Assembly (NCBI GenBank): GCA_016201505.1
Contig: JACQCQ010000013.1
Span: 80,830 to 144,829 of the forward strand
DNA from: Candidatus Sungiibacteriota bacterium
GTDB taxonomy: Bacteria > Patescibacteriota > Minisyncoccia > Sungbacterales > JACQCQ01
Direction: 5' to 3'
Length of the DNA: 64,000 bases
The notes beneath the pieces were generated by a model. The model was given only the letters and a program-made list of their open reading frames with translations, was not told the origin of the DNA and searched no databases. A program made the position numbers and the translations under genes. Shown piece by piece: positions 5,935-32,498 of this stretch (positions within the stretch are counted from its first letter, which is position 1; each line of letters starts with the position of its first letter).

Positions 5935-6363
5935 TTAACTTGAAGCTGGGACCACGTGTATGACCCCGACCATGTCAAAATGCGTCCGTTTTTTACCGTC
6001 GACAACTCCTTCGCCGCAGGGTACGGAGCAGTAAAAAGAAAAGTCGCCTTCTTGGGTCACCGTAAATTCAATCGTGATGGTTGAATTGGCCGGCATTCTT
6101 TGAGAGACGCCGTAGGCGTCAATCGCCAGGCCGTGATCATAATCGTCTTCGTTTACGACTGTGGCCACGATTTTGTCGCCGCGAATAACCGTGATTTGGT
6201 CGGGGAGAAAGCGCCACTGATTCTTTTTGGCGACAATCGTGACGGCTTTTACATTTCCGGTAATGACCGGGGCTTGACCTCTGGGCAAGATGAAATACCG
6301 ATAACCCATGCCGGCGACAAGTATCACGAGGCCGACAATGATTAAAATGAGATATTTATTCAT
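5935..6363 (-). CDS. Membrane-anchored cupredoxin-domain protein with CuA-like ligands.
   Basis: N-terminal TM helix; C-terminal FYCSVPCGEGVVDGKKRTHFDM (Cys-x3-Cys-Gly...His-x2-Met) resembling CuA/cupredoxin copper-site spacing. Confidence 0.6.
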   Translation of the reverse strand: MNKYLILIIVGLVILVAGMGYRYFILPRGQAPVITGNVKAVTIVAKKNQWRFLPDQITVIRGDKIVATVVNEDDYDHGLAIDAYGVSQRMPANSTITIEFTVTQEGDFSFYCSVPCGEGVVDGKKRTHFDMVGVIHVVPASS

Positions 6364-23337: not shown

Positions 23338-24558
23338 TTAGAATGCGGAAGTTCCAAGCGGCGTGCCAAGGCCGGTTGGCCCGTCGTAGCCGGTAAGAGC
23401 GGTGCAAAGATAAGTGCCTGCGCAGCTGCCATTGGAGCCGGAGGTAATGTCGTGCATATTCGCTGAATTGCCGAGTGCATACGGCAGCGAGGCGGGAGAA
23501 GAGGAACCAACCGTTCCCTGAAGCCCATAGACGGCGGCAATCAGCGGACTCGACAAACTTGTCCCGCCGACCTTAAACCAGCCTGACTTGCCCTGATACC
23601 GAACACTGTCATACACCGCTGCTCCCGTGTTGGGGTCTGCCACTGCCGAGACATCGGCAATGGCCCGATGAGTACACGACGCATCGCTTTGCCAGGTTGG
23701 TTTTGATTCATACTGACTGCACCCCGACCCACTGCCTGACCAGGCAGTCTCGCTGTTATAGGAGTTATCTGAATTTAAGAATAACGTCGTCCCGCCAACG
23801 GCGACAACGTATTGAGAGGCGGCCGGATACTCCACGCCGTAGCCTGCGTCTCCCGAACTGAAGGTGAATACAATTCCAGAATGATTGAAGTGCGCGTCGT
23901 AGCCAGTCTCACCAGAAAATTCCGCCGAGCCGTATGAATTCGAGACTTCGTTGGCGCCGAGCGTTACCGCGCGATCCACCGCGGCCATTAAATTGGCATA
24001 TGAATTTGAGCTGGCTTCGACAAGCAGGATGCCGCAGTTTTGGCACATAGCGTGAGCTACTTCAACGTCGAGCGAAATCTCAAGCGCCCAACCGGAATTG
24101 ACCGAAGGATAATTAAATGTCTGACCAAATTGATTTACTTTTTGAAAGCAGGGGGAAGCCGAGGCGGCAATTGGTCCGGCACACTGAGGCAACACCGGAA
24201 TGGCGTAGGTTTTACTGTAGGTGGCGAGATCCGAATAAATATTCGGGTCATCATACGCGTCCACGATGGCAATAATATTTTTTGTAGCAGAAGTTGTGGG
24301 AACACTATAGGCCACGTGAAATTGGGTCGGTCCAAATCCGTTTGGCAACGATGTCGTTTTCGGCGTCGATCGATCAGATTCGGTGATCACGCGCACATGA
24401 CAGCGGACATCGCCATCCCTCGGATGACAGACTGCGATGTGCGGCTCATGAAGAAGCTTACTGTCATCTCTTTCATTATCAGTTTTGGCGACCGCCACCG
24501 CCGCCACAAGCAACGTAGCCGCAATGACACTAAAAAAGACTTTATCGGGATAGTTCAT
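23338..24558 (-). CDS. Secreted S53 (sedolisin-type) serine-carboxyl peptidase (S8/S53 superfamily).
   Basis: Signal/TM N-terminus. Sedolisin triad context: E-x-S-L-D-V-E (EISLDVE), SSGDAG, and GGTSLSSP. Confidence 0.75.
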   Translation of the reverse strand: MNYPDKVFFSVIAATLLVAAVAVAKTDNERDDSKLLHEPHIAVCHPRDGDVRCHVRVITESDRSTPKTTSLPNGFGPTQFHVAYSVPTTSATKNIIAIVDAYDDPNIYSDLATYSKTYAIPVLPQCAGPIAASASPCFQKVNQFGQTFNYPSVNSGWALEISLDVEVAHAMCQNCGILLVEASSNSYANLMAAVDRAVTLGANEVSNSYGSAEFSGETGYDAHFNHSGIVFTFSSGDAGYGVEYPAASQYVVAVGGTTLFLNSDNSYNSETAWSGSGSGCSQYESKPTWQSDASCTHRAIADVSAVADPNTGAAVYDSVRYQGKSGWFKVGGTSLSSPLIAAVYGLQGTVGSSSPASLPYALGNSANMHDITSGSNGSCAGTYLCTALTGYDGPTGLGTPLGTSAF

Positions 24559-24699
24559 AACCTCGTAGGCATCATACCAGACCTTGTGTCATATTTCAAA
24601 CACCGACCTCTGCAAAACTAAGACCATTCTGCCGTCGGGCGGTTTTCGTTTTATGAAAACCATGGGGGAGAAATTATGATACTCCGAGCTGTACTCATT

Positions 24700-24752
24700 T
24701 CCTGCGATCGCAGGAAATGAGTACAGCGAATCAAAAGCCGCGCGATGCGCGG
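24700..24752. terminator. Tandem hairpins: a 20+20-bp perfect palindrome followed by a GC hairpin with a T-run.
   Basis: GCTGTACTCATTTCCTGCGA|TCGCAGGAAATGAGTACAGC followed by AAAAGCCGCGCGATGCGCGGCTTTT. Confidence 0.5.
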
Positions 24753-25075
24753 CTTTTGTGTTGCTCAAAAAATTTCCCGCCTTCTCCGCCAGCTGGCAGA
24801 TACGGAAGGGCGCAGCAACTGTTTTATCCCTGAATGAATTCCAACTGTTCCGACTTTGGTCTTCCGAAGCTCCGTGAGGAGCGCAGGAGACCGCGCTGTA
24901 ATGTCCCCATTACAACGACTAGTCTCGGTGTATCGTGTTTCAGCCGTCCGAAGCTCTTGCGAGCGTAGGAGACTTCCGAGACCAAACACGTCTTTGGCTC
25001 GCCGTAGCTCCGTGAGGAGCGTAGACGGCTTTCATTCTCCAGGATGAGATAAGGAGGCGAGGCGCTTGCAGTACT

Positions 25076-26412
25076 TCTAAACGCACCTCGCATAAGGATC
25101 AGGCTTTCGCCTGCTAGATTTCGATCTCGGGCAATCTCCACGCCGCAGGCAAGGTGCACCTCGCCAAAAGCACGTCTCCGCTGCAGCGGAGCAAGACGAC
25201 CCGAGCTCTGTTATCCCGAACATCGGTACGATTTTTTTTTGCGATGCAGATACCGAGGTAGCGGAGGAAGCAGACGCCCAGTAGAGGATCGGGCGAAGGC
25301 ACTACCTACTAGCTAACCCGATCATACGTGATGTCCACCCCCGCGCTTCTCATCACCTTGTCCAGTGATACTCCGCAAGCGCCACGGGATTTCCTGCATC
25401 GCAAACTGAATTTCTATTTTTCCTTATCTCATCCTGGAGTTTTCGCCGCGCCAAAATTTTTATAAATAAAAACTTAGGCGGGCGTCCGACCTTCTAGGAT
25501 CACTGTTCAATCAGTTTGCTAGTTTTCTAGTTGACTAGTTAACTAGTAGGTCGCTAAGCGACCGGAACTGATGAACTGACAGATTCCTAAAAAGAATATG
25601 TTCCATCGACAGCTTCCGCTACCGATGCCTTGTTCATGTTCTCCCTATGTCGCCATAAGGCATGGACTATATCATCACCCTTTGTTGCAATGTCTTGATT
25701 TTTCTCGGATGCCAACTTCCGATAATCTTCAAGAAGTTTTCTTGAGATTTTTTCGAAATAAACATTCGGAAATAATCTGGATCTATGTGGAAACTTGGAT
25801 TATGGATTTTCCCCGATTGGATTCCAAAACTTATCAGCATTTGTTTAAGTTTCTCCAGTTTGATGCGATCATTCTGCACCAGTTGAATGTAAAACCTTGC
25901 GGATGGACTTCTTGGAATTCCTCCCTCGGCATCAAAGAATCCTCTTAAATACGCTATTTTTTCCTCAGCTGAATTTAACCGCTTAGGATCGAATTTTGTA
26001 TCTAAGAATTTTGCTCTTGTTTCCAATACATACACTTTACGATTTCTGCCTTCGCGATATATCCAGGAGGTATTATCCGTTAGCGCTAGGCAAGATTTTA
26101 GTACTGATAACCAATCAGTACCTAGCTGCGCAAACCGGTGTCTTTGGTTATACCGATTGAAGGTGCCATCGTGAAGCGCACCGAGTAAGTATGCTCGGCA
26201 TTCTGCAACAGAAGGGGCTTGGCGTGTAGTCTCTGAGGCGCCTCCGACGTTACGTCGGAGTTGCCTGCTGATTGTCTGCGCTTTTCGCATTATCACTTCT
26301 AGAACTATTTTAGCTCTATAAGTAGCAAAAAGATACTCAGGTTTTCCAGCATATAGCCAAGTTTTTATGTGAGAATTACTCCTCACAAGTCGCAACGGAC
26401 GCAGTCTGCGCC
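25076..26412 (-). mobile_element. About 1.3-kb intron-like insertion near the 16S 3' end (E. coli position about 1506-1520) encoding a LAGLIDADG homing endonuclease.
   Basis: 16S exon sequence (positions about 1400-1505) occupies 26396-26497 and the terminal about 22 nt occupy 25051-25072. The intervening 1.3 kb has no 16S similarity and carries the LAGLIDADG ORF. Confidence 0.6.
25667..26395 (-). CDS. Double-motif LAGLIDADG homing endonuclease (intron-encoded). The track ORF begins with a TTG; the start is uncertain.
   Basis: Two LAGLIDADG-like motifs: LLGALHDGTF and YLRGFFDAEGGI. Length 242 aa. Confidence 0.8.
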   Translation of the reverse strand: MRLVRSNSHIKTWLYAGKPEYLFATYRAKIVLEVIMRKAQTISRQLRRNVGGASETTRQAPSVAECRAYLLGALHDGTFNRYNQRHRFAQLGTDWLSVLKSCLALTDNTSWIYREGRNRKVYVLETRAKFLDTKFDPKRLNSAEEKIAYLRGFFDAEGGIPRSPSARFYIQLVQNDRIKLEKLKQMLISFGIQSGKIHNPSFHIDPDYFRMFISKKSQENFLKIIGSWHPRKIKTLQQRVMI

Positions 26413-26497
26413 TACGACTTCGTCTTTGTCACCGATCCTACCGTGGGCCACCATAAGTGGACTTCGGGTATTACCAGCTCCCCTGACGTGACGGGCG

Positions 26498-27232
26498 GTA
26501 TTAAGATCACTTCTGTGTCTTACACCACTGGGCGAACGGTTTTCCCGTACCCTAGCGGTTTCTTATATCGCTTTCGCGATATAGATTCGTCCCTTCCCGA
26601 GCACATATTTTTGGAGTCTATTGACGAAATTTATCAATAGGTATATAAATTGTATACGAGGAGGTGAAGGATTATGTTGGGTATCGCGGTTCCACCGATC
26701 CCTGCAAACGCGGGTGTCAGTAGCGATCCGGAAGGACTGCTCGCGCTCCTTCTTCTGATGTTCGTCGTTGTTCCGTCAATCATCGTCATTTTCGGCGGCG
26801 CGATCATGGCGAACGTCGAAGACTGAGATCAGCGGACGGCTTTCACCCCCCACAGCGGCCTCCAGGAGGTCGCTTTCAATTTCTCCAAAAATATGTGCTC
26901 GGTACTATGGATTCTGCTGACTTCTCAATAAGCATCAAGATAAAATTGCTTTTATCCTTTACCTTTCGGACTTAATAAGATCTCCTTCGGTCACCGAATA
27001 TACCATTCTCTCACATCTCGATACTCCGTATATAGCGTAAAATTTGTGCAGATGACTTCTCCATGTACTCGAAGGATCGTCGATCTACGCTACCTATTAG
27101 CGAGTATTCAAGCTATAAGACATATACTTTCGCCCTTCATCCTGAGGATCACTCCTCGAAGGACTGCGATTTCATTTCGCGACTTCTGCAAATCGTGGTG
27201 GGATTTAAACCCACTGGCATACTCGGCTGCAA
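26498..27232 (-). other. About 735-nt insertion in 16S at the conserved 1400 region, between GACGGGCGGT and TGTACAAG.
   Basis: Universal 1392 primer-site sequence is split: ...GACGGGCGGT at 26485-26494 and ...GTACAAAGCTCGAGAACGTATTCACC at 27235-27262. Confidence 0.6.
26674..26826 (+). CDS. Candidate 50-aa hydrophobic peptide with a strong Shine-Dalgarno, encoded inside the 16S insertion (antisense to the rRNA).
   Basis: AGGAGGTG is 5 nt upstream of the ATG. Translation MLGIAVPPIPANAGVSSDPEGLLALLLLMFVVVPSIIVIFGGAIMANVED has one predicted TM helix. Confidence 0.3.
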   Translation: MLGIAVPPIPANAGVSSDPEGLLALLLLMFVVVPSIIVIFGGAIMANVED

Positions 27233-27708
27233 AGCACCCGAGTACAAAGCTCGAGAACGTATTCACCGCGGCATAGCTGATCCGCGATTACTAGCGATTC
27301 CATCTTCAAGGAGTCGAGTTGCAGACTCCTATCTGAACTGGGGCGCACTTTGATGGGATTAGCTCCGCCTTGCGGCTTGGCAACCCATTGTATGCGCCAT
27401 TGTAGCACGTGTGTAGCCCAGGGTATCAGAGGGCCATGCTGACCTCGCGTCATCCCCTCCTTCCTCTCCCGAAAAGGAAGCAGTCTCTCCTGACACATAT
27501 AACAGAAGACAAGGGTTGCGTTCGTTAACCCACTTAAGGGAACAGTTCAAACCACGAACTGACGAGGGCCATGCAGCACCTGTGATTGCCGTCTTGTGAA
27601 CACACCGCGGTTTCTCGCGGTTTTTGCAATCATTTCAAACCCTGGTGAGGTTCCTCGGTTGTCATCGAATTGAACCACATGCTCCACCGCTTGTGCGAGC
27701 TCCCGTCT

Positions 27709-27838: not shown

Positions 27839-28920
27839 CTACAATTTTGTTGCGACAAAATTGGAATTTCTAAATCCGAATTTCTAATTTCTAAACAAAT
27901 CCGAAATCTCAAATTTCCAAATTGCGGACGAGACATTTCTGCTCGTCTCTCCGTATCGCTACGGAGATCGGACTGTATCATGACGGAAAGTATTACTGGC
28001 GCGGGTTTCGCTTTCGCTCACCCGCGCCGGGACTTCCGCCCTCGGCGTGCAGTCTCTGAGGGTTACGAAAGAGAGATCGGCGCTGTTTCTACATGCCGAT
28101 GGCCGAAACCGGGCCCGTCGAGGCTATCTCCGTAGCTTTCCTTGACGATGCGCTCGACGCGTACCACATTACCCATATCTTGAGCGATGGCGCGAGCTAC
28201 ATTGTCACCTTGAGCTTCGAACTCTACGACTGCCCAATATTTCATAGCTTCTCCTTTTCGTCCTTCCCTGCTGGTTGTCCGTTGACCGATCCGCGTTTAG
28301 CGGATACAGGTCGCACCGGATGCTTTTTTACCACTACTTTACATCGAACTTGCTGACTTCCTTCCGCATTCCTTCAAGGACCCTGCGAATCTCCGGCGAA
28401 TTGCCGTACTTCGCGAGGTACTTGTCGATCAGCTCGAGAAACCCGTTCTGCATGGCCTCGCGGGCCATTTGAGTGAACAAGCTCATTGTTTTTTTCCTTT
28501 CTGTGGTAGCACCGGATACACCGGATGTTCCAGCATATAGCTCCGCCGTCGCCTCACGGCTATGGCGGATCCCAACTTCACCATCATATTTTTCAATGGT
28601 GCGTCGGGACAAGTTTTCCAGGCAGTAGAAATTCGACTCGCTTCACAGCTGGCCGCAGAGAGGCCGGTCGAATTTCTACTGCCTGGTTTTTCCTTTTGAC
28701 GCGTTACTTCGCGTCCTAAGGGGACCATGCTCACGGTACCCCTACCGCCTCACTCTCGTTCGCTGTATCAACAGCGCCCTCAAGCGAGTCACATGTATGC
28801 ACAGAGAAATTTTTTCGAAACTCAAGGGAGGGATCCCGTCGTCGGAACGACAAATCCCTATGGGGAGAGTTGTAACATGCTCCTCCCTTGGTGATGAAAA
28901 AATTTCTCTGTGCAAAACAT
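27839..28920 (-). other. About 1.1-kb insertion in 16S after the 785-805 site. It contains small ORFs (28063..28245 and 28334..28612, minus strand) and a hairpin repeat element.
   Basis: 16S blocks on either side are contiguous in normal 16S (GGACTACTGGGGTATCTA at 27820-27838 and CCCATTCGCTCCCCACGCTTTCG at about 28925). The intervening sequence has no rRNA similarity. Confidence 0.55.
28613..28686. repeat. Hairpin element with 21-bp perfect terminal inverted repeats CCAGGCAGTAGAAATTCGAC...GTCGAATTTCTACTGCCTGG (family member 1).
   Basis: Perfect inverted repeat with a 28-nt interior. The terminal repeats match the element at 29205-29332. Confidence 0.6.
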
Positions 28921-29204
28921 GCGCGAGCGCTTTCGATCCCATTCGCTCCCCACGCTTTCGTCTGTGAACGTCAGGACAAGGCCAGCAACATGCCTTCGCC
29001 TTTGGTATTCCCTATGATATCAACGGATTTCACCCCTACACCATAAGTTCTAGTTGCCTCTCCTTGCCTCTAGTCGTGCCGTTTCGAATGCGGCCTACGA
29101 GTTAAGCCCGTAGATTTAACACCCGACTAACACGACCGTCTGGAGACCCTTTACGCCCAATAAATCCGGATAACGCTTGAAGCCTTCGTATTACCGCGGC
29201 TGCT

Positions 29205-29332
29205 GGCCAGGTAGTAGAAGTTCGACTGCGCGCGAGCGCAAATTATTTTCGAACATTTAATTTTCAGAGCCATGACAGATAGTGCTCCCAACTACAGAAA
29301 TCTTCATTTCATAGTCGAACTTTCACTACCTG
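29205..29332. repeat. 128-bp hairpin intervening element inserted in the 16S 530-loop region. Terminal repeats CCAGGTAGTAGAAGTTCGACTG / CAGTCGAACTTTCACTACCTGG. Family member 2 (IVS/MITE-like).
   Basis: The insertion splits the universally conserved GCTGCTGGCAC (519 site) into GCTGCTGGC | element | CTGGCAC, with a CTGGC direct repeat. The 22-bp terminal inverted repeats are near-identical to those of the 28613 element. Confidence 0.65.
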
Positions 29333-29344
29333 GCTGGCACGAAA

Positions 29345-29995
29345 TTCTACCGCCAATTTGGACTATATCATCACCCCGATGTTCATCGGGGGTCCCGCGT
29401 GTAGTCTCTGAGGGCTCTCTGCTATAAGTTCGATAGACTAGTCTATCGAACTTATAGAAACAGGTTGCCTGCTGATTGTTTCGTTGCGCGTCTTTGCAGT
29501 TTGCAAAACATTTCCGCGGACACAACGAAGTGTTCCAGTCCCGCAAGCCTCCCCACCGCAATACACTGATGTATTGTAGTGGCATGACTCACAGGATTCC
29601 CGAATCCATCTTTTCTTACGGCCAATAGGGCCGCGGGATTGCGATTTGTAACTACTCCGCCTTCGCTAAAAGCTTCGGCGGACAAGTCGTTACACTCGCA
29701 GACAAATCGGGAACATATAGCGAGATTTTCTTATGACGTATTACTACGCCAACTTCGCACCAAGTTTTTCTAACTTCACGAAGTTTGCAGCTTCTTATTC
29801 ATCTGGTACGGTCAGTCGTGCCTCGCTCTAGCGAACCACTCTCAATTTTAAATTTCCAATTTCTAATTTTCAATGAATGTCCTAATGTCTCAATTTCCAA
29901 AGGTTTGGGGTATTGAATCATTAAGAATTGACTGAAAATTGCAAAATTGATCATTGCAAATTGTGTGCCTCACAAAAGTGAGACACGACTTCTTC
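29345..29995 (-). other. About 540 extra nt in the 16S region between E. coli positions about 400 and 515. It contains the operator type 2 palindrome and sequence blocks shared with the LAGLIDADG intron.
   Basis: Blocks GCGTGTAGTCTCTGAGGG (29396-29413) and GTTGCCTGCTGATTGT (29464-29479) also occur at 26222-26238 and 26261-26276 within the LAGLIDADG ORF region. Conserved 16S resumes near 29995 (CTTTACAGACCGAAGTCCTTCTTCCTGCACGCGGCG). Confidence 0.5.
29422..29457. promoter_or_regulatory. Operator type 2, copy d: CTATAAGTTCGATAGACT|AGTCTATCGAACTTATAG, 36-bp perfect palindrome, located inside the 16S insertion.
   Basis: Identical 36/36 to the copy at 35243-35278. Confidence 0.55.
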
Positions 29996-30296: not shown

Positions 30297-30624
30297 GACC
30301 ATTGAGTATTAGCCAATCTTTCGGCTGGTTATTCTCATCTCGGGGGTAGATTCCAAGGTATTACTGAACTCGTTCGCCGCTAACTGGCAAATTGCGCGTA
30401 GCTAATGGAAAATAGTATTGCTACTATAAGCCATCCGCCAATTGCTATAAGCCAATTCGCACGACTTGCATGCCCTATCCACGCCGCCAGCGTTCATCCT
30501 GGACCAGGATCAAATCCTCTAATAGATCAGTTAGTTTTTCAGTTTACTAGTTGCCTAGTTCACATATTGCTAACTGCCGAGAACAAGAGGAAGAAAGAAA
30601 CGAATTTTTAGAAAACTCGCGAAA

Positions 30625-30675
30625 AAATAAAAAAAATTTAGGACCAGTCCCGCAGCTTCACAGCTGCGGGACTGG
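30625..30675 (-). terminator. Rho-independent terminator on the minus strand.
   Basis: 16-bp perfect stem GACCAGTCCCGCAGCT-tcac-AGCTGCGGGACTGGTC preceded on the plus strand by an A-run (a U-run on the minus strand). Confidence 0.55.
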
Positions 30676-31386: not shown

Positions 31387-31776
31387 GACTCCTTTCCTTT
31401 TCCTTCTTCCTCTTGTTCTCTAATTCACTCATTAAGTTTTACTTAGCGAGTATAGTTCTAAAATCGAGCTCCGCAGTAATTATGAGAATCGGAATCCCGC
31501 ATCAATCTCGGCGCGACTTTCATTCGTTCGTGAGTCGAATGCTCGGAGATCGCCTCCGGCTGACTTTATAGAATAAGAAAGTTTGTCGTAAAGATTGGTG
31601 CGGGATTCTCGATTTTGTCCTCAAAAATTATCGCTTCACTCAATTTTTGAACAAAATCGGAACAGTTGGAATTTTTCCAGGCCTTTCAGTTTCTAGTTAC
31701 GCTCGCATTGCGAGCTACAGTTTTCTAGTTATAACTAGCCAACTAATAAACTAGCGAACTAAAAGGTTACTAATTT

Positions 31777-31806
31777 ATCCCGTTAGAAACTTTTTCTAAT
31801 CGGGAT
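31777..31806. repeat. Short hairpin ATCCCGTTAGAAACTTTTTCTAATCGGGAT, a minimal member of the CCCGTTAGA inverted-repeat family.
   Basis: Inverted repeat CCCGTTAGAA / TTCTAA(T)CGGG. Confidence 0.5.
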
Positions 31807-31830
31807 TGTGCTACACCCATTATTTTTATT

Positions 31831-31858
31831 CACTCCAATACTTTAAAGTATTGGAGTG
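31831..31858. promoter_or_regulatory. Operator type 3, solo copy: CACTCCAATACTTT|AAAGTATTGGAGTG, 28-bp perfect palindrome.
   Basis: Identical to the palindrome at 36548-36575 flanking the second TrpR-like gene. Confidence 0.55.
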
Positions 31859-31876
31859 CTTCAATAATGGTGTATT

Positions 31877-31905
31877 TGTCCCGTTAGAAACTTTTCCTAA
31901 CGGGA
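31877..31905. repeat. Short hairpin GTCCCGTTAGAAACTTTTCCTAACGGGAT (CCCGTTAGA family).
   Basis: Inverted repeat CCCGTTAG / CTAACGGG with a 10-nt loop. Confidence 0.5.
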
Positions 31906-32175
31906 TCTATTCAATTATTAAAATACTGTCCAAGCAGACACCACGAATTTATACAAACTGTTTTCGGCAAACACGCACAAACATTTCGTATCCTTTCGTT
32001 AACAATCTTGTAACGATTCGTGGTTTATTCTTACAAAACAGAACCACGCAAATTCCCATAAAGAAACTTGCGCGGTTCTGCCTGCATTGTGTCCCCCAAT
32101 TGACTCGAGGGTTTTGACTTGTTCCCGGCCCCAACGATTCCGATAGACCGAGTATTTTGATAGGCGAAACAGCTA

Positions 32176-32242
32176 CATCCCGTTTAGAAGTAAGAAACTG
32201 ATGTTTCTGCTACTTTCAGAGAAAGAGGACTTCTAACGGGAT
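32176..32242. mobile_element. MITE-like element (67 bp) with ATCCCGTTTAGAAG / CTTCTAACGGGAT terminal inverted repeats.
   Basis: Terminal inverted repeats share the CCCGTTAGA core with the elements at 32309, 35068, 58294 and 59674. Confidence 0.5.
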
Positions 32243-32308
32243 ACATTTAACCTATCTGACAACCAAGTTAAGGTAAGTAAAAGTATAAGCCTCTATAAGA
32301 AATTGTCA

Positions 32309-32473
32309 ATCCCGTTAGAAGCCGCGACTACGAAAGATAGAACTAAAATGATTATTTTTATTGAATCTAGACTAATCTGACACAAACACGTTTGATCGCG
32401 ATCCTACCTGCGCTCCGTCGGCCATAGCCTTTGGCGACGTGCGACCGGCAGGCAGGTCTGCTTCTAACGGGAT
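32309..32473. mobile_element. MITE-like element (165 bp). Its left terminal repeat ATCCCGTTAGAAGCCGCGA and right terminal repeat TCTGCTTCTAACGGGAT match the two ends of the 59674-59780 element in reverse orientation.
   Basis: 14-17-bp terminal inverted repeats. The internal GTTTGATCGCGATC block is shared with the 59674 element. It lies just downstream of the ROK kinase stop codon. Confidence 0.6.
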
Positions 32474-32498
32474 CAAGTATTTCCTCCAGCCGCATCGC

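Follow-up and report, generated by a model that had tools for sequence, protein, structure and literature searches.

A group I intron with a LAGLIDADG endonuclease gene at position 1498 of an interrupted 16S rRNA gene of Candidatus Sungbacteria, and a candidate folded domain in the 3' trailer

Introduction

Where does the 16S rRNA end in a bacterium whose gene for it is broken up by large insertions? The question is raised by a 64-kb stretch of DNA (64,000 nucleotides; the window) from Candidatus Sungbacteria, a group of the Parcubacteria within the CPR. In its initial annotation, the end of the 16S rRNA, with an anti-SD sequence, was placed on the far side of an insertion that encodes an endonuclease. 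The answer favored here, with a probability of about 0.8, joins three parts. Judged from the sequences compared, the gene is interrupted near its 3' end by a group I intron with a LAGLIDADG endonuclease, the 16S tail after the intron is one without an anti-SD, and the transcript would continue into a trailer that contains a folded domain.

Layout of the 16S rRNA gene

The bacterial 16S rRNA gene is placed by Rfam on the minus strand, from about 30525 downwards, and is split by large insertions. It is a single, heavily interrupted copy that runs from ~30525 to ~25591. The following exon blocks were located, by blastn against E. coli rrsH unless other evidence is given:

30199-29989, minus strand: 16S exon block, E. 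coli 243-453
29207-28936, minus strand: 16S exon block, E. coli 517-788
27841-27242, minus strand: 16S exon block, E. coli 789-1395
from 26499, minus strand: 16S exon block, E. coli 1398-1419
26414..26499, minus strand: 16S exon segment, E. coli 1398-1498 (helix 44, shortened), from blastn, the sequence and the contiguous intron-less alleles of L008 and L033
25634-25599, minus strand: 16S exon block, E. coli 1499-1534

The exon segment at 26414..26499 ends in ...GAAGUCGU, and its last base, U1498 at 26414, is the U of the 5' splice site. This exon had been thought to end at 26396 and the insertion after it to reach 25073; both boundaries are revised, since the exon ends at 26414, the intron ends at 25635, and the 16S sequence resumes at 25634. 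Elsewhere in the gene, Rfam matches a group II D1-D4 fragment at 26884-26960, and group-II-like insertions at position 1400 have been described in the 16S rRNA genes of CPR bacteria (Tsurumaki et al. 2024, PMC11270868). The ORFs in the other 16S insertions and in the trailer element did not match any Pfam family.

The group I intron

25635..26413, minus strand: group I intron, 779 nt (Rfam RF00028, homologous introns, RNAalifold compensatory pairs)

The intron lies between the positions of E. coli U1498 and A1499, so that the first base of the 3' exon, A1499, is found at 25634. It matches RF00028 over the full-length model (1-253) with an E-value of 1.6e-13, and its 59.5 bits exceed the gathering score, which is 50; Rfam gives the coordinates as 25643-26423. 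For comparison, the window was aligned with six further loci (L002, L003, L006, L129, L130, and L131). All seven carry insertions of 776-814 nt at the identical site, between AAGTCGT and AACAAGG, and each insertion ends in ...AUG directly ahead of AACAAGG, with the terminal G of the window at 25635. The exon sequence AAGUCGU is paired in P1 with the internal guide GCGACUU, and the splice-site U.G is present in 7/7 homologues.

The secondary structure was predicted from the alignment with RNAalifold. In the 5' part of the intron, P1, a hairpin in the P1 loop, P3, P4, P5/P5a, and P6 were obtained, and compensatory changes affect 16 of the 43 predicted pairs. The 3' part yields P7, P8, and P9, with 8 compensatory pairs out of 23. 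Such changes occur in the P1-extension, P3, P5/P5a, P6, P8, and P9, while P4 and P7 (GACUA/UAGUC) are invariant among the seven introns. The window intron additionally has P2 and a possible P10 (GUU/AAC). The insertion from 26413 to 25635 is a group I intron, and its core helices P3-P9 are backed by covariation. The intron class, which the initial annotation had left open, is settled by the match to RF00028, by the compensatory pairs in P1-P9, and by intron-less alleles in relatives.

The family to which the intron belongs suggests how it would be removed. The end of the 5' exon, AAGUCGU, would be held on the guide GCGACUU with the U.G at the splice site, and the core P3-P9 would fold. An external guanosine would attack after U1498, and the terminal G (25635) would then position the 3' splice site. 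The expected product of exon ligation is ...GAAGUCGU|AACAAGG.... This self-splicing chemistry of the 779-nt intron is assumed by analogy with other group I introns.

The homing endonuclease

25667..26290, minus strand: homing endonuclease gene, 207 aa plus stop, ATG at 26290 (Pfam, deposited protein, alignment, AlphaFold2, Foldseek)

The 242-aa ORF at 25667..26395 (minus strand) with two LAGLIDADG motifs, from which the initial annotation had proposed an intron-encoded double-LAGLIDADG endonuclease near the 3' end of the 16S gene, does exist and is contained in the 779-nt group I intron. The TTG of the ORF track had been noted there with the question of the true start left open; the gene starts at the ATG at 26290, which gives the 207 aa of the deposited protein. 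The homologues also begin at the position of this ATG and not at the upstream TTG. With a cutoff of E<=1e-5 they number 1079, and almost all have a length of 203-216 aa. The encoded protein is 100% identical to the deposited 207-aa P0001, [quoted passage not shown].

The Pfam search returned LAGLIDADG_3 with an E-value of 4.6e-13 at residues 145-226 of the 242-aa ORF, which is the C-terminal half. Pfam sees this one endonuclease domain, and the N-terminal domain goes undetected. Nevertheless, both LAGLIDADG motifs can be read, YLLGALHDGTF at 26191->26159 and YLRGFFDAEGG at 25951->25919, and both carry an invariant acidic residue: D41 (LHDGT) and E122 (FFDAEGG), in the 207-aa numbering, are unchanged across 27 homologues. 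In the AlphaFold2 model (pLDDT 88, pTM 0.83), two alpha-beta-beta-alpha-beta-beta repeats follow a disordered N-terminus of residues 1-23. A phmmer search of the PDB did not find a relative of the endonuclease, and one is given by fold comparison alone. The top Foldseek match in the PDB is I-DmoI over the full length (E 9.4e-10, TM 0.65-0.70, ~190-200 columns), followed by I-Tsp061I and then by WhiA. On this model, the 207-aa protein is predicted to be a monomeric two-domain LAGLIDADG endonuclease with the pseudo-dimeric fold of the I-DmoI type.

The gene and the ribozyme share sequence. The main body of the endonuclease fills the P8 loop, whereas the start of the ORF is in the P5 extension, from which its N-terminal ~23 codons traverse P5'/P4'/P6/P7; the stop codon TAG falls within the 3' strand of P7 (P7', GAUAUAGUC). 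At J6/7-P7, the RNA sequence UCAGAGACUA corresponds to S-E-T, a motif that is invariant in the protein. In the window's clade, P5'/P4' is read in a different frame (KAQTISR versus ADNQQGS), and the N-terminal stretch of the endonuclease is therefore constrained as RNA and not as protein. Expression of the endonuclease is putative because its start overlaps the ribozyme core and an SD motif is absent upstream of it. If the protein is made, it would, by analogy, cut intron-less 16S alleles at GACGAAGTCGT|AACAAGGCATCGG, and the intron would then be copied into them (homing).

Intron states among relatives

Alleles of the kind that such an endonuclease would cut are present in relatives. The gene is uninterrupted at the intron site in L008, a contig of a GTDB genome (...GACGAAGTCGTAACAAGGCATCGGTAGCGG...), and also in L033, a metagenome contig; the intron-less junction in both reads GGTGACAAAGACGAAGTCGT|AACAAGGCATCGGTAGCGGA. 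In L208-210, the same site is occupied by a group I intron of 440 nt that is ORF-less and has a short hairpin as P8. All of these are considered close relatives because the unusual 16S tail of the window is common to them. Close relatives thus show three kinds of allele: with the intron and its endonuclease gene, with the intron only, and uninterrupted. This is the pattern that a homing element should produce.

Knowledge of this insertion in CPR 16S rRNA genes reportedly goes back to Brown et al. in Nature in 2015. [quoted passage not shown] 2024 (J Bacteriol, PMC11270868). In that survey, the hot spots at which group I introns of CPR bacteria are reported are 16IS4-7 and 16IS10. Proteins of the LAGLIDADG_3 family are confined to 16S insertions, at 16IS5 and 16IS10 (PMC11270868). 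Group I introns with LAGLIDADG_2/_3 proteins occur at 16IS10, and the survey also speaks of the "IS at position 1498 of the 16S rRNA gene" (PMC11270868). Since introns of this kind are reported there at 1498/16IS10, the window intron is a member of a described class.

The 3' tail of the 16S rRNA

25591..25634, minus strand: 16S 3' exon (AACAAGG, helix 45, tail GGAACAUAUUCUUU), from blastn to E. coli 1499-1534 and colinear relatives
25050..25057, minus strand: CCTCCTTA octamer at the inner end of the 3' arm of a 19-bp helix, outside the 16S, from chance count and relatives

The intron is followed immediately by AACAAGG-CAUCGGUAGC-GGAA-GCUGUCGAUG-GAACAUAUUCUUUUUAGGAAUC, which gives a perfect helix 45 with a GGAA loop. 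The tail that follows has UAUUCUUU in place of the expected CCUCCUUA, so that the anti-SD positions 1535-1539 are UAUUC and not CCUCC. The mature 16S rRNA probably ends near 25591, in ...AUAUUCUUU. The tails of L006 (GGATCACCTCCTTTCTAAGGAA) and L002 (GGATCATCTCCTTTTTAGGGAG) are canonical, and they are colinear with that of the window:

L006: GGAUCACCUCCUUUCUAAGGAAU
L002: GGAUCAUCUCCUUUUUAGGGAG
window, identical in L003-5, L008, L033, and L208: GGAACAUAUUCUUUUUAGGAAU

The stretch homologous to the 16S ends of the relatives is 25598-25591 in the window. The 16S thus continues from the intron into helix 45 and a tail without the CCUCC core, a known trait of some Parcubacteria; the anti-SD motif was detected in only 48% of this group (PMC9297842).

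The initial annotation had found the 16S terminus and the anti-SD at 25051-25072, and had assumed that an intron parts these last ~22 nt from the body of the 16S. Neither assumption holds. The 16S continues directly after the intron, from 25634 to ~25591, and the CCTCCTTA octamer at 25050-25057 lies ~535 nt beyond its end. One copy is present in the window against 1.34 expected, and at least one copy occurred in 79 of 100 shuffled sequences. In L008 and L087, GCATCCTTA stands at the octamer position, and of the four relatives in which the repeat described below occurs, two lack the CC of CCTCC.

The use of SD motifs gives no guide to the need for an anti-SD. Few of the 46 listed ORFs have an SD-like motif upstream, but such motifs are no more common in relatives whose tail is canonical; for this reason, they do not discriminate. 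In a small set of 47 ORFs, certain 5-mers are enriched upstream (TTAGAAT and ACCTAA). These may represent -10-like boxes, or else they may be complementary to the new tail, and 47 ORFs are too few to tell the two apart.

The 3' trailer

25440..25590, minus strand: proximal 3' trailer with CTAGTT/AACTAG repeats (RNAduplex; trailer alignment)
25037..25439, minus strand: structured trailer element, 403 nt, closed by a 19-bp perfect helix (repeat search; fold energy; relatives)
24918..24994, minus strand: conserved motif ACGUGuuuGGUCUC(G/U)G-variable hairpin-AACACGAUACAC(C/A)GAGAC (window, L005, L008, L033, L087, L208)
24830..24858, minus strand: conserved motif CAAAGUCGGAACAGUUGGAA..UUCAG, ahead of a terminator-like hairpin at 24710-24780

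At its 3' end, the proximal trailer carries the conserved block "CCTAGAAGGTCGG" together with a hairpin whose sequence varies. According to RNAduplex, it can pair with the 5' leader at 30526-30660 (-58.8 kcal/mol, z -3.15; 2 of 300 shuffles were as good). This predicted leader-trailer duplex would be the usual 16S processing stalk, and it is separate from the 19-bp helix farther downstream.

The arms of the 19-bp helix are 100% complementary, the 5' arm being CUCCAGGAUGAGAUAAGGA (25439->25421) and the 3' arm UCCUUAUCUCAUCCUGGAG (25055->25037); the chance expectation for such a 19-mer in the window is 0.01. An inverted repeat had been reported in the initial annotation as 18 bp at 25041-25058 and 25413-25430. 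The repeat is real, but its length and coordinates needed correction to 19 bp at 25037-25055 and 25421-25439. It had also been read as a splicing stem in which the 16S terminus pairs with an intron segment. This cannot be upheld, as neither arm is in the 16S or in the intron: the arms lie 152 and 536 nt downstream of the inferred 16S end, and both are in the 3' trailer. The repeat is best read as the helix that closes a structured trailer domain, one that is dispensable and specific to the lineage.

The 403-nt element is predicted to fold with -184 kcal/mol (z -7.1). The identical locus carries the same arms in at least three other genomes (L008, L033, and L087), where the element is flanked by the conserved block CCTAGAAGGTCGG on its 5' side and by the conserved motif ACGUGuuuGGUCUCGG...AACACGAUACACCGAGAC on its 3' side. 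The interiors measure 145, 276, and 271 nt in these three genomes, and their sequences are largely divergent outside a conserved hairpin, GCGAGGUGC...GCGCCUCGC, which adjoins the inner side of the 3' arm in every copy and in the same orientation. Taken alone, the interiors give z-scores of -3.0 to -6.2 in the three relatives and -3.3 in the window. In L005 and L208-210, the element is absent and a small hairpin is found instead; the other conserved blocks are kept. Searches of the trailer and of the relatives' trailers against Rfam returned no family at E<=1, and a 111-aa spurious ORF over the trailer found nothing when used as a query for more relatives. A small ORF with an SD and an ATG lies within the element of L008 and has no counterpart in the window.

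The octamer once taken for an anti-SD belongs to this helix. In L008, the 5' arm is extended as UAAGGAGG, and CC precedes the 3' arm in L033 as well as in the window; an ancestral helix of 21 bp is therefore probable, and the octamer is simply its inner end. The arms are identical in sequence in three of the four genomes, and the fourth has a mismatch and not a compensatory change. Consequently, there is no covariation in the closing helix that would prove selection on the helix itself, and the conservation of the arms could equally reflect a protein-binding site or the ends of a mobile element. The 5' arm additionally shares 10 nt (UCCAGGAUGA) with the 5' end of the 16S, at nt ~20-30; this match (duplex -28.3 kcal/mol, z -2.8) is only marginally beyond chance.

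The two motifs downstream of the element are also conserved. That at 24918..24994 has one compensatory pair (G-C <-> U-A) and could form an H-type pseudoknot. A second copy of the CAAAGUCGGAACAGUUGGAA..UUCAG motif was seen in the window at 31656-31670 on the plus strand. A scan for the 15-mer GTCGGAACAGTTGGA gave 76 matches, all of which are regarded as chance because none is accompanied by the extended motif.

The most likely role of the element would be that of an entry site for the processing or decay of double-stranded RNA, for example, as a target of RNase III. It would act in the ~900-nt transcribed spacer between the 16S and the terminator at ~24750. What is found at the locus is a perfect duplex of about two helical turns around a dispensable insertion, as in RNase III-type sites; the cleavage itself is presumed. 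A second RNase III site would not be necessary for 16S maturation because the leader-trailer stalk already exists.

Alternative explanations

The sequence after helix 45 might be read as a second intron of ~540 nt (25598->25058), with its ends joined by the 19-bp helix and a canonical anti-SD restored by its removal. The product GGAACA|CCUCCUUA would be close to a canonical tail, the last base of the putative insert is a G directly ahead of CCTCC, and the segment is strongly structured; L033, too, has CCTCCTTA at the 3' arm. However, the sequence after GGAACA, UAUUCUUUUUAGGAAU, aligns base-for-base with CCUCCUUUCUAAGGAAU of L006 and UCUCCUUUUUAGGGAG of L002, which comprise canonical tail and trailer, and is therefore a homologous tail and not the start of an intron. 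The 3' arm of L008 and L087 is GCAUCCUUA, and L005 and L208 have the same tail with neither element nor octamer downstream. No intron model matched at E<=1, the octamer is at chance frequency, and the loss of the anti-SD is documented in Parcubacteria (PMC9297842). A second intron that restores CCUCCUUA was ruled out by the colinearity of the tail with those of relatives and by the non-conservation of the CC, and hardly any weight can be given to this explanation.

The preferred reading, with a tail that lacks the anti-SD and a folded domain in the trailer, can also be set against two other views of the 403-nt element. It might be non-autonomous mobile DNA of the MITE kind that landed in the 16S trailer, with the 19-bp arms as terminal inverted repeats. 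Its presence varies between close relatives, and the 19-nt ends are identical around different interiors. Nevertheless, the locus is always the same, between the same conserved blocks, and the inner 3' hairpin has one orientation in all copies. A second copy was not found in the 64-kb window with up to 3 mismatches allowed, target-site duplications were not seen at the four flanks, and a scan of viral contigs for the arms gave 0 matches; among the at least 120 metagenome 16-mer matches listed, both arms were found at orthologous loci only. Mobile DNA is thus an improbable source of the element. A MITE, a retron, and an invertible segment were all rejected on the absence of extra copies, of flanking duplication, and of an adjacent reverse-transcriptase or invertase gene, and on the constant orientation. 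Somewhat less improbable, though still unlikely, is an independent structured ncRNA, or an RNA domain of a novel type, that would be transcribed together with the 16S and the downstream motifs and serve beyond spacer processing, for example, in the timing of ribosome assembly through pairing of the 3' arm with the 5' end of the 16S. The folds are very stable in four genomes despite divergent interiors, the arms are invariant in sequence, one of them shares UCCAGGAUGA with 16S nt ~20-30, the conserved blocks downstream include a compensatory pair, and Rfam has no match. On the other hand, the element is dispensable, as it is missing from L005 and L208-210, which keep the other blocks; there are four examples among the matches listed, the closing helix is without covariation, and the 10-nt match to the 16S 5' end exceeds chance marginally. 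It is accordingly a speculative proposal that the element (150-400 nt), the pseudoknot-like motif, and the GUCGGAACAGUUGGAA motif form an undescribed RNA module in this clade of Sungbacteria, with the invariant arm, as a mimic or complement of the 16S 5' end (UCCAGGAUGA), taking part in the maturation or quality control of the 16S rRNA and not serving as inert spacer.

Significance

The main value of the analysis is a correction of annotation: exons and intron are mapped exactly at the 3' end of a CPR 16S rRNA gene that is broken up by large insertions, and the anti-SD that seemed to be split off is a chance octamer within a trailer helix. The correction matters because the 16S genes of CPR bacteria are routinely mis-called. 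The intron and its endonuclease are one further well-resolved example of a published class, and a neat one through the overlap of the ORF ends with the ribozyme core and the three states of the homing cycle in near relatives. The variable, strongly folded trailer element with the conserved motifs adjacent to it is the one part for which no published counterpart was found, and the novelty is modest. If functional, the element and motifs would bear on the processing of very long, intron-laden rRNA precursors in ultra-small bacteria.

Comparison with known systems

The intron can be compared with the core of the Tetrahymena type (subgroup IC-like). Common to both are J6/7-P7 UCAGAGACUACA, J8/7-P7' GAUAUAGUC, the arrangement of P3 and P8, the U.G at the 5' splice site, and the terminal G. 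Unlike that type, the host here is a bacterial 16S rRNA gene, a hairpin stands within the P1 loop, and the ORF lies in P8 and extends across the core. The endonuclease resembles I-DmoI from a 23S intron of Desulfurococcus and I-Tsp061I from a 16S intron of Thermoproteus in its predicted fold, its size (~190-205 aa), its location in an rRNA intron, and its two LAGLIDADG helices with one acidic residue each. Sequence identity to these proteins is only 14-21%. Their hosts are archaeal bulge-helix-bulge introns, which are spliced by a protein endonuclease, whereas the host of the window protein is a group I intron of the self-splicing class.

The closest known parallels to the trailer element are the rRNA IVS and spacer stems cut by RNase III, such as the 23S IVS of Salmonella and Leptospira and the 16S stalk. 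There, too, a long perfect duplex in the rRNA transcript closes an insertion that is dispensable, variable, and lineage-specific. The window element differs in its position, which is the 3' trailer and not the mature rRNA, and it comes in addition to the leader-trailer stalk; it is much larger (403 nt) and multi-branched, and its cleavage is putative. The introns of CPR bacteria at 1498/16IS10 are the nearest to the window intron. They share with it the host group (Parcubacteria/CPR), the gene, the insertion position, the intron class, and the LAGLIDADG_3 family, and the window intron shows no essential difference from them. To this picture, the present locus adds exact boundaries, the overlap between the ends of the ORF and the ribozyme core, and three states of the homing cycle among close relatives.

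The 16S rRNA 3' end and the downstream gene

The 16S rRNA of the window ends in UAUUCUUU rather than CCUCCUUA (25591-25598, minus strand), and the core of the anti-SD, CCUCC, is missing. The related loci L003-5, L008, L033 and L208 have the same tail, so that it occurs in no fewer than four genomes or contigs that are independent of each other. A different tail, GGAUCAAUAAAUUU, likewise without CCUCC, was found in locus L130 (at about 3720). The tail in the window agrees with a published survey in which some of the Parcubacteria have lost the anti-SD (PMC9297842).

Downstream of the rRNA, a promoter-like site, TTGAAA-17-(TG)TATGAT, is located at 24571-24599 (minus strand) and ends 13 nt ahead of the ATG at 24558, where a 406-aa gene starts. 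This spacing suggests that the leader of the gene is very short or absent, which is in keeping with the missing anti-SD.

Elements of the 16S trailer

The trailer, 3' of the 16S end, contains an element closed by a 19-bp helix. The 5' arm of the helix (25421-25439) has UCCAGGAUGA in common with 16S nucleotides ~20-30 (30496-30510, minus strand), so the 3' arm could instead pair with the 16S 5' end; this duplex was calculated at -28.3 kcal/mol (z -2.8). In the L008 copy of the element (1220-1345), the arm runs on into AAGGAGG. An ATG 7 nt further on opens a 39-codon ORF (MKIMRLAKSVARWWWRYSIMGW...), which is probably fortuitous because it has no counterpart in the window.

Two further motifs are shared with the related loci.

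24918-24994 (minus strand): conserved trailer motif; also L005 950-1037, L008 1430-1460, L208 ~6000-6085, L033 and L087
24840-24854 (minus strand) and 31656-31670 (plus strand): motif (G/A)TCGGAACAGTTGGAA-N3-6-TT(T/C)CAG; also L005, L008 (twice), L033, L087 and L208

The trailer motif, which has no match in Rfam, reads ACGUGuuuGGUCUC(G/U)G-[0-90 nt of variable hairpins]-AACACGAUACAC(C/A)GAGAC. It could form an H-type pseudoknot from CGUG:CACG and a 7-bp stem, in which one pair is compensatory (G-C/U-A). Every copy of the second motif is followed shortly 3' by a terminator-like hairpin. Its plus-strand copy lies on the opposite strand, upstream of the rRNA region, and is adjoined by CTAGTT/AACTAG repeats that resemble those flanking the 16S gene. 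In a non-coding stretch of ~1.1 kb (31779-32480), a repeat that can form a hairpin, ATCCCGTTAGAA...TTCTAACGGGAT, occurs at least five times with irregular spacing; the stretch does not resemble a CRISPR array.

Other insertions in the 16S gene

29208-29784 (minus strand): large insertion, 577 nt, near position 510; weak group I match (27 bits, E 8e-4)
27842-28935 (minus strand): large insertion, 1094 nt, at 788/789
26500-27241 (minus strand): ORF-less insertion, 742 nt, at 1397/1398; group II D1-D4 match (36 bits)

Further 5' in the gene, there are smaller insertions of 62, 38 and 162 nt. The 1094-nt insertion has no Rfam match, and its ORFs belong to no Pfam family. A few bases from the 1397/1398 site, group-II-like insertions are also found in L008 (at 1403/1404, with a LAGLIDADG-type ORF inside) and L033. 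The 1397/1398 insertion matches a hot spot described in the literature as "position 1400" (PMC11270868).
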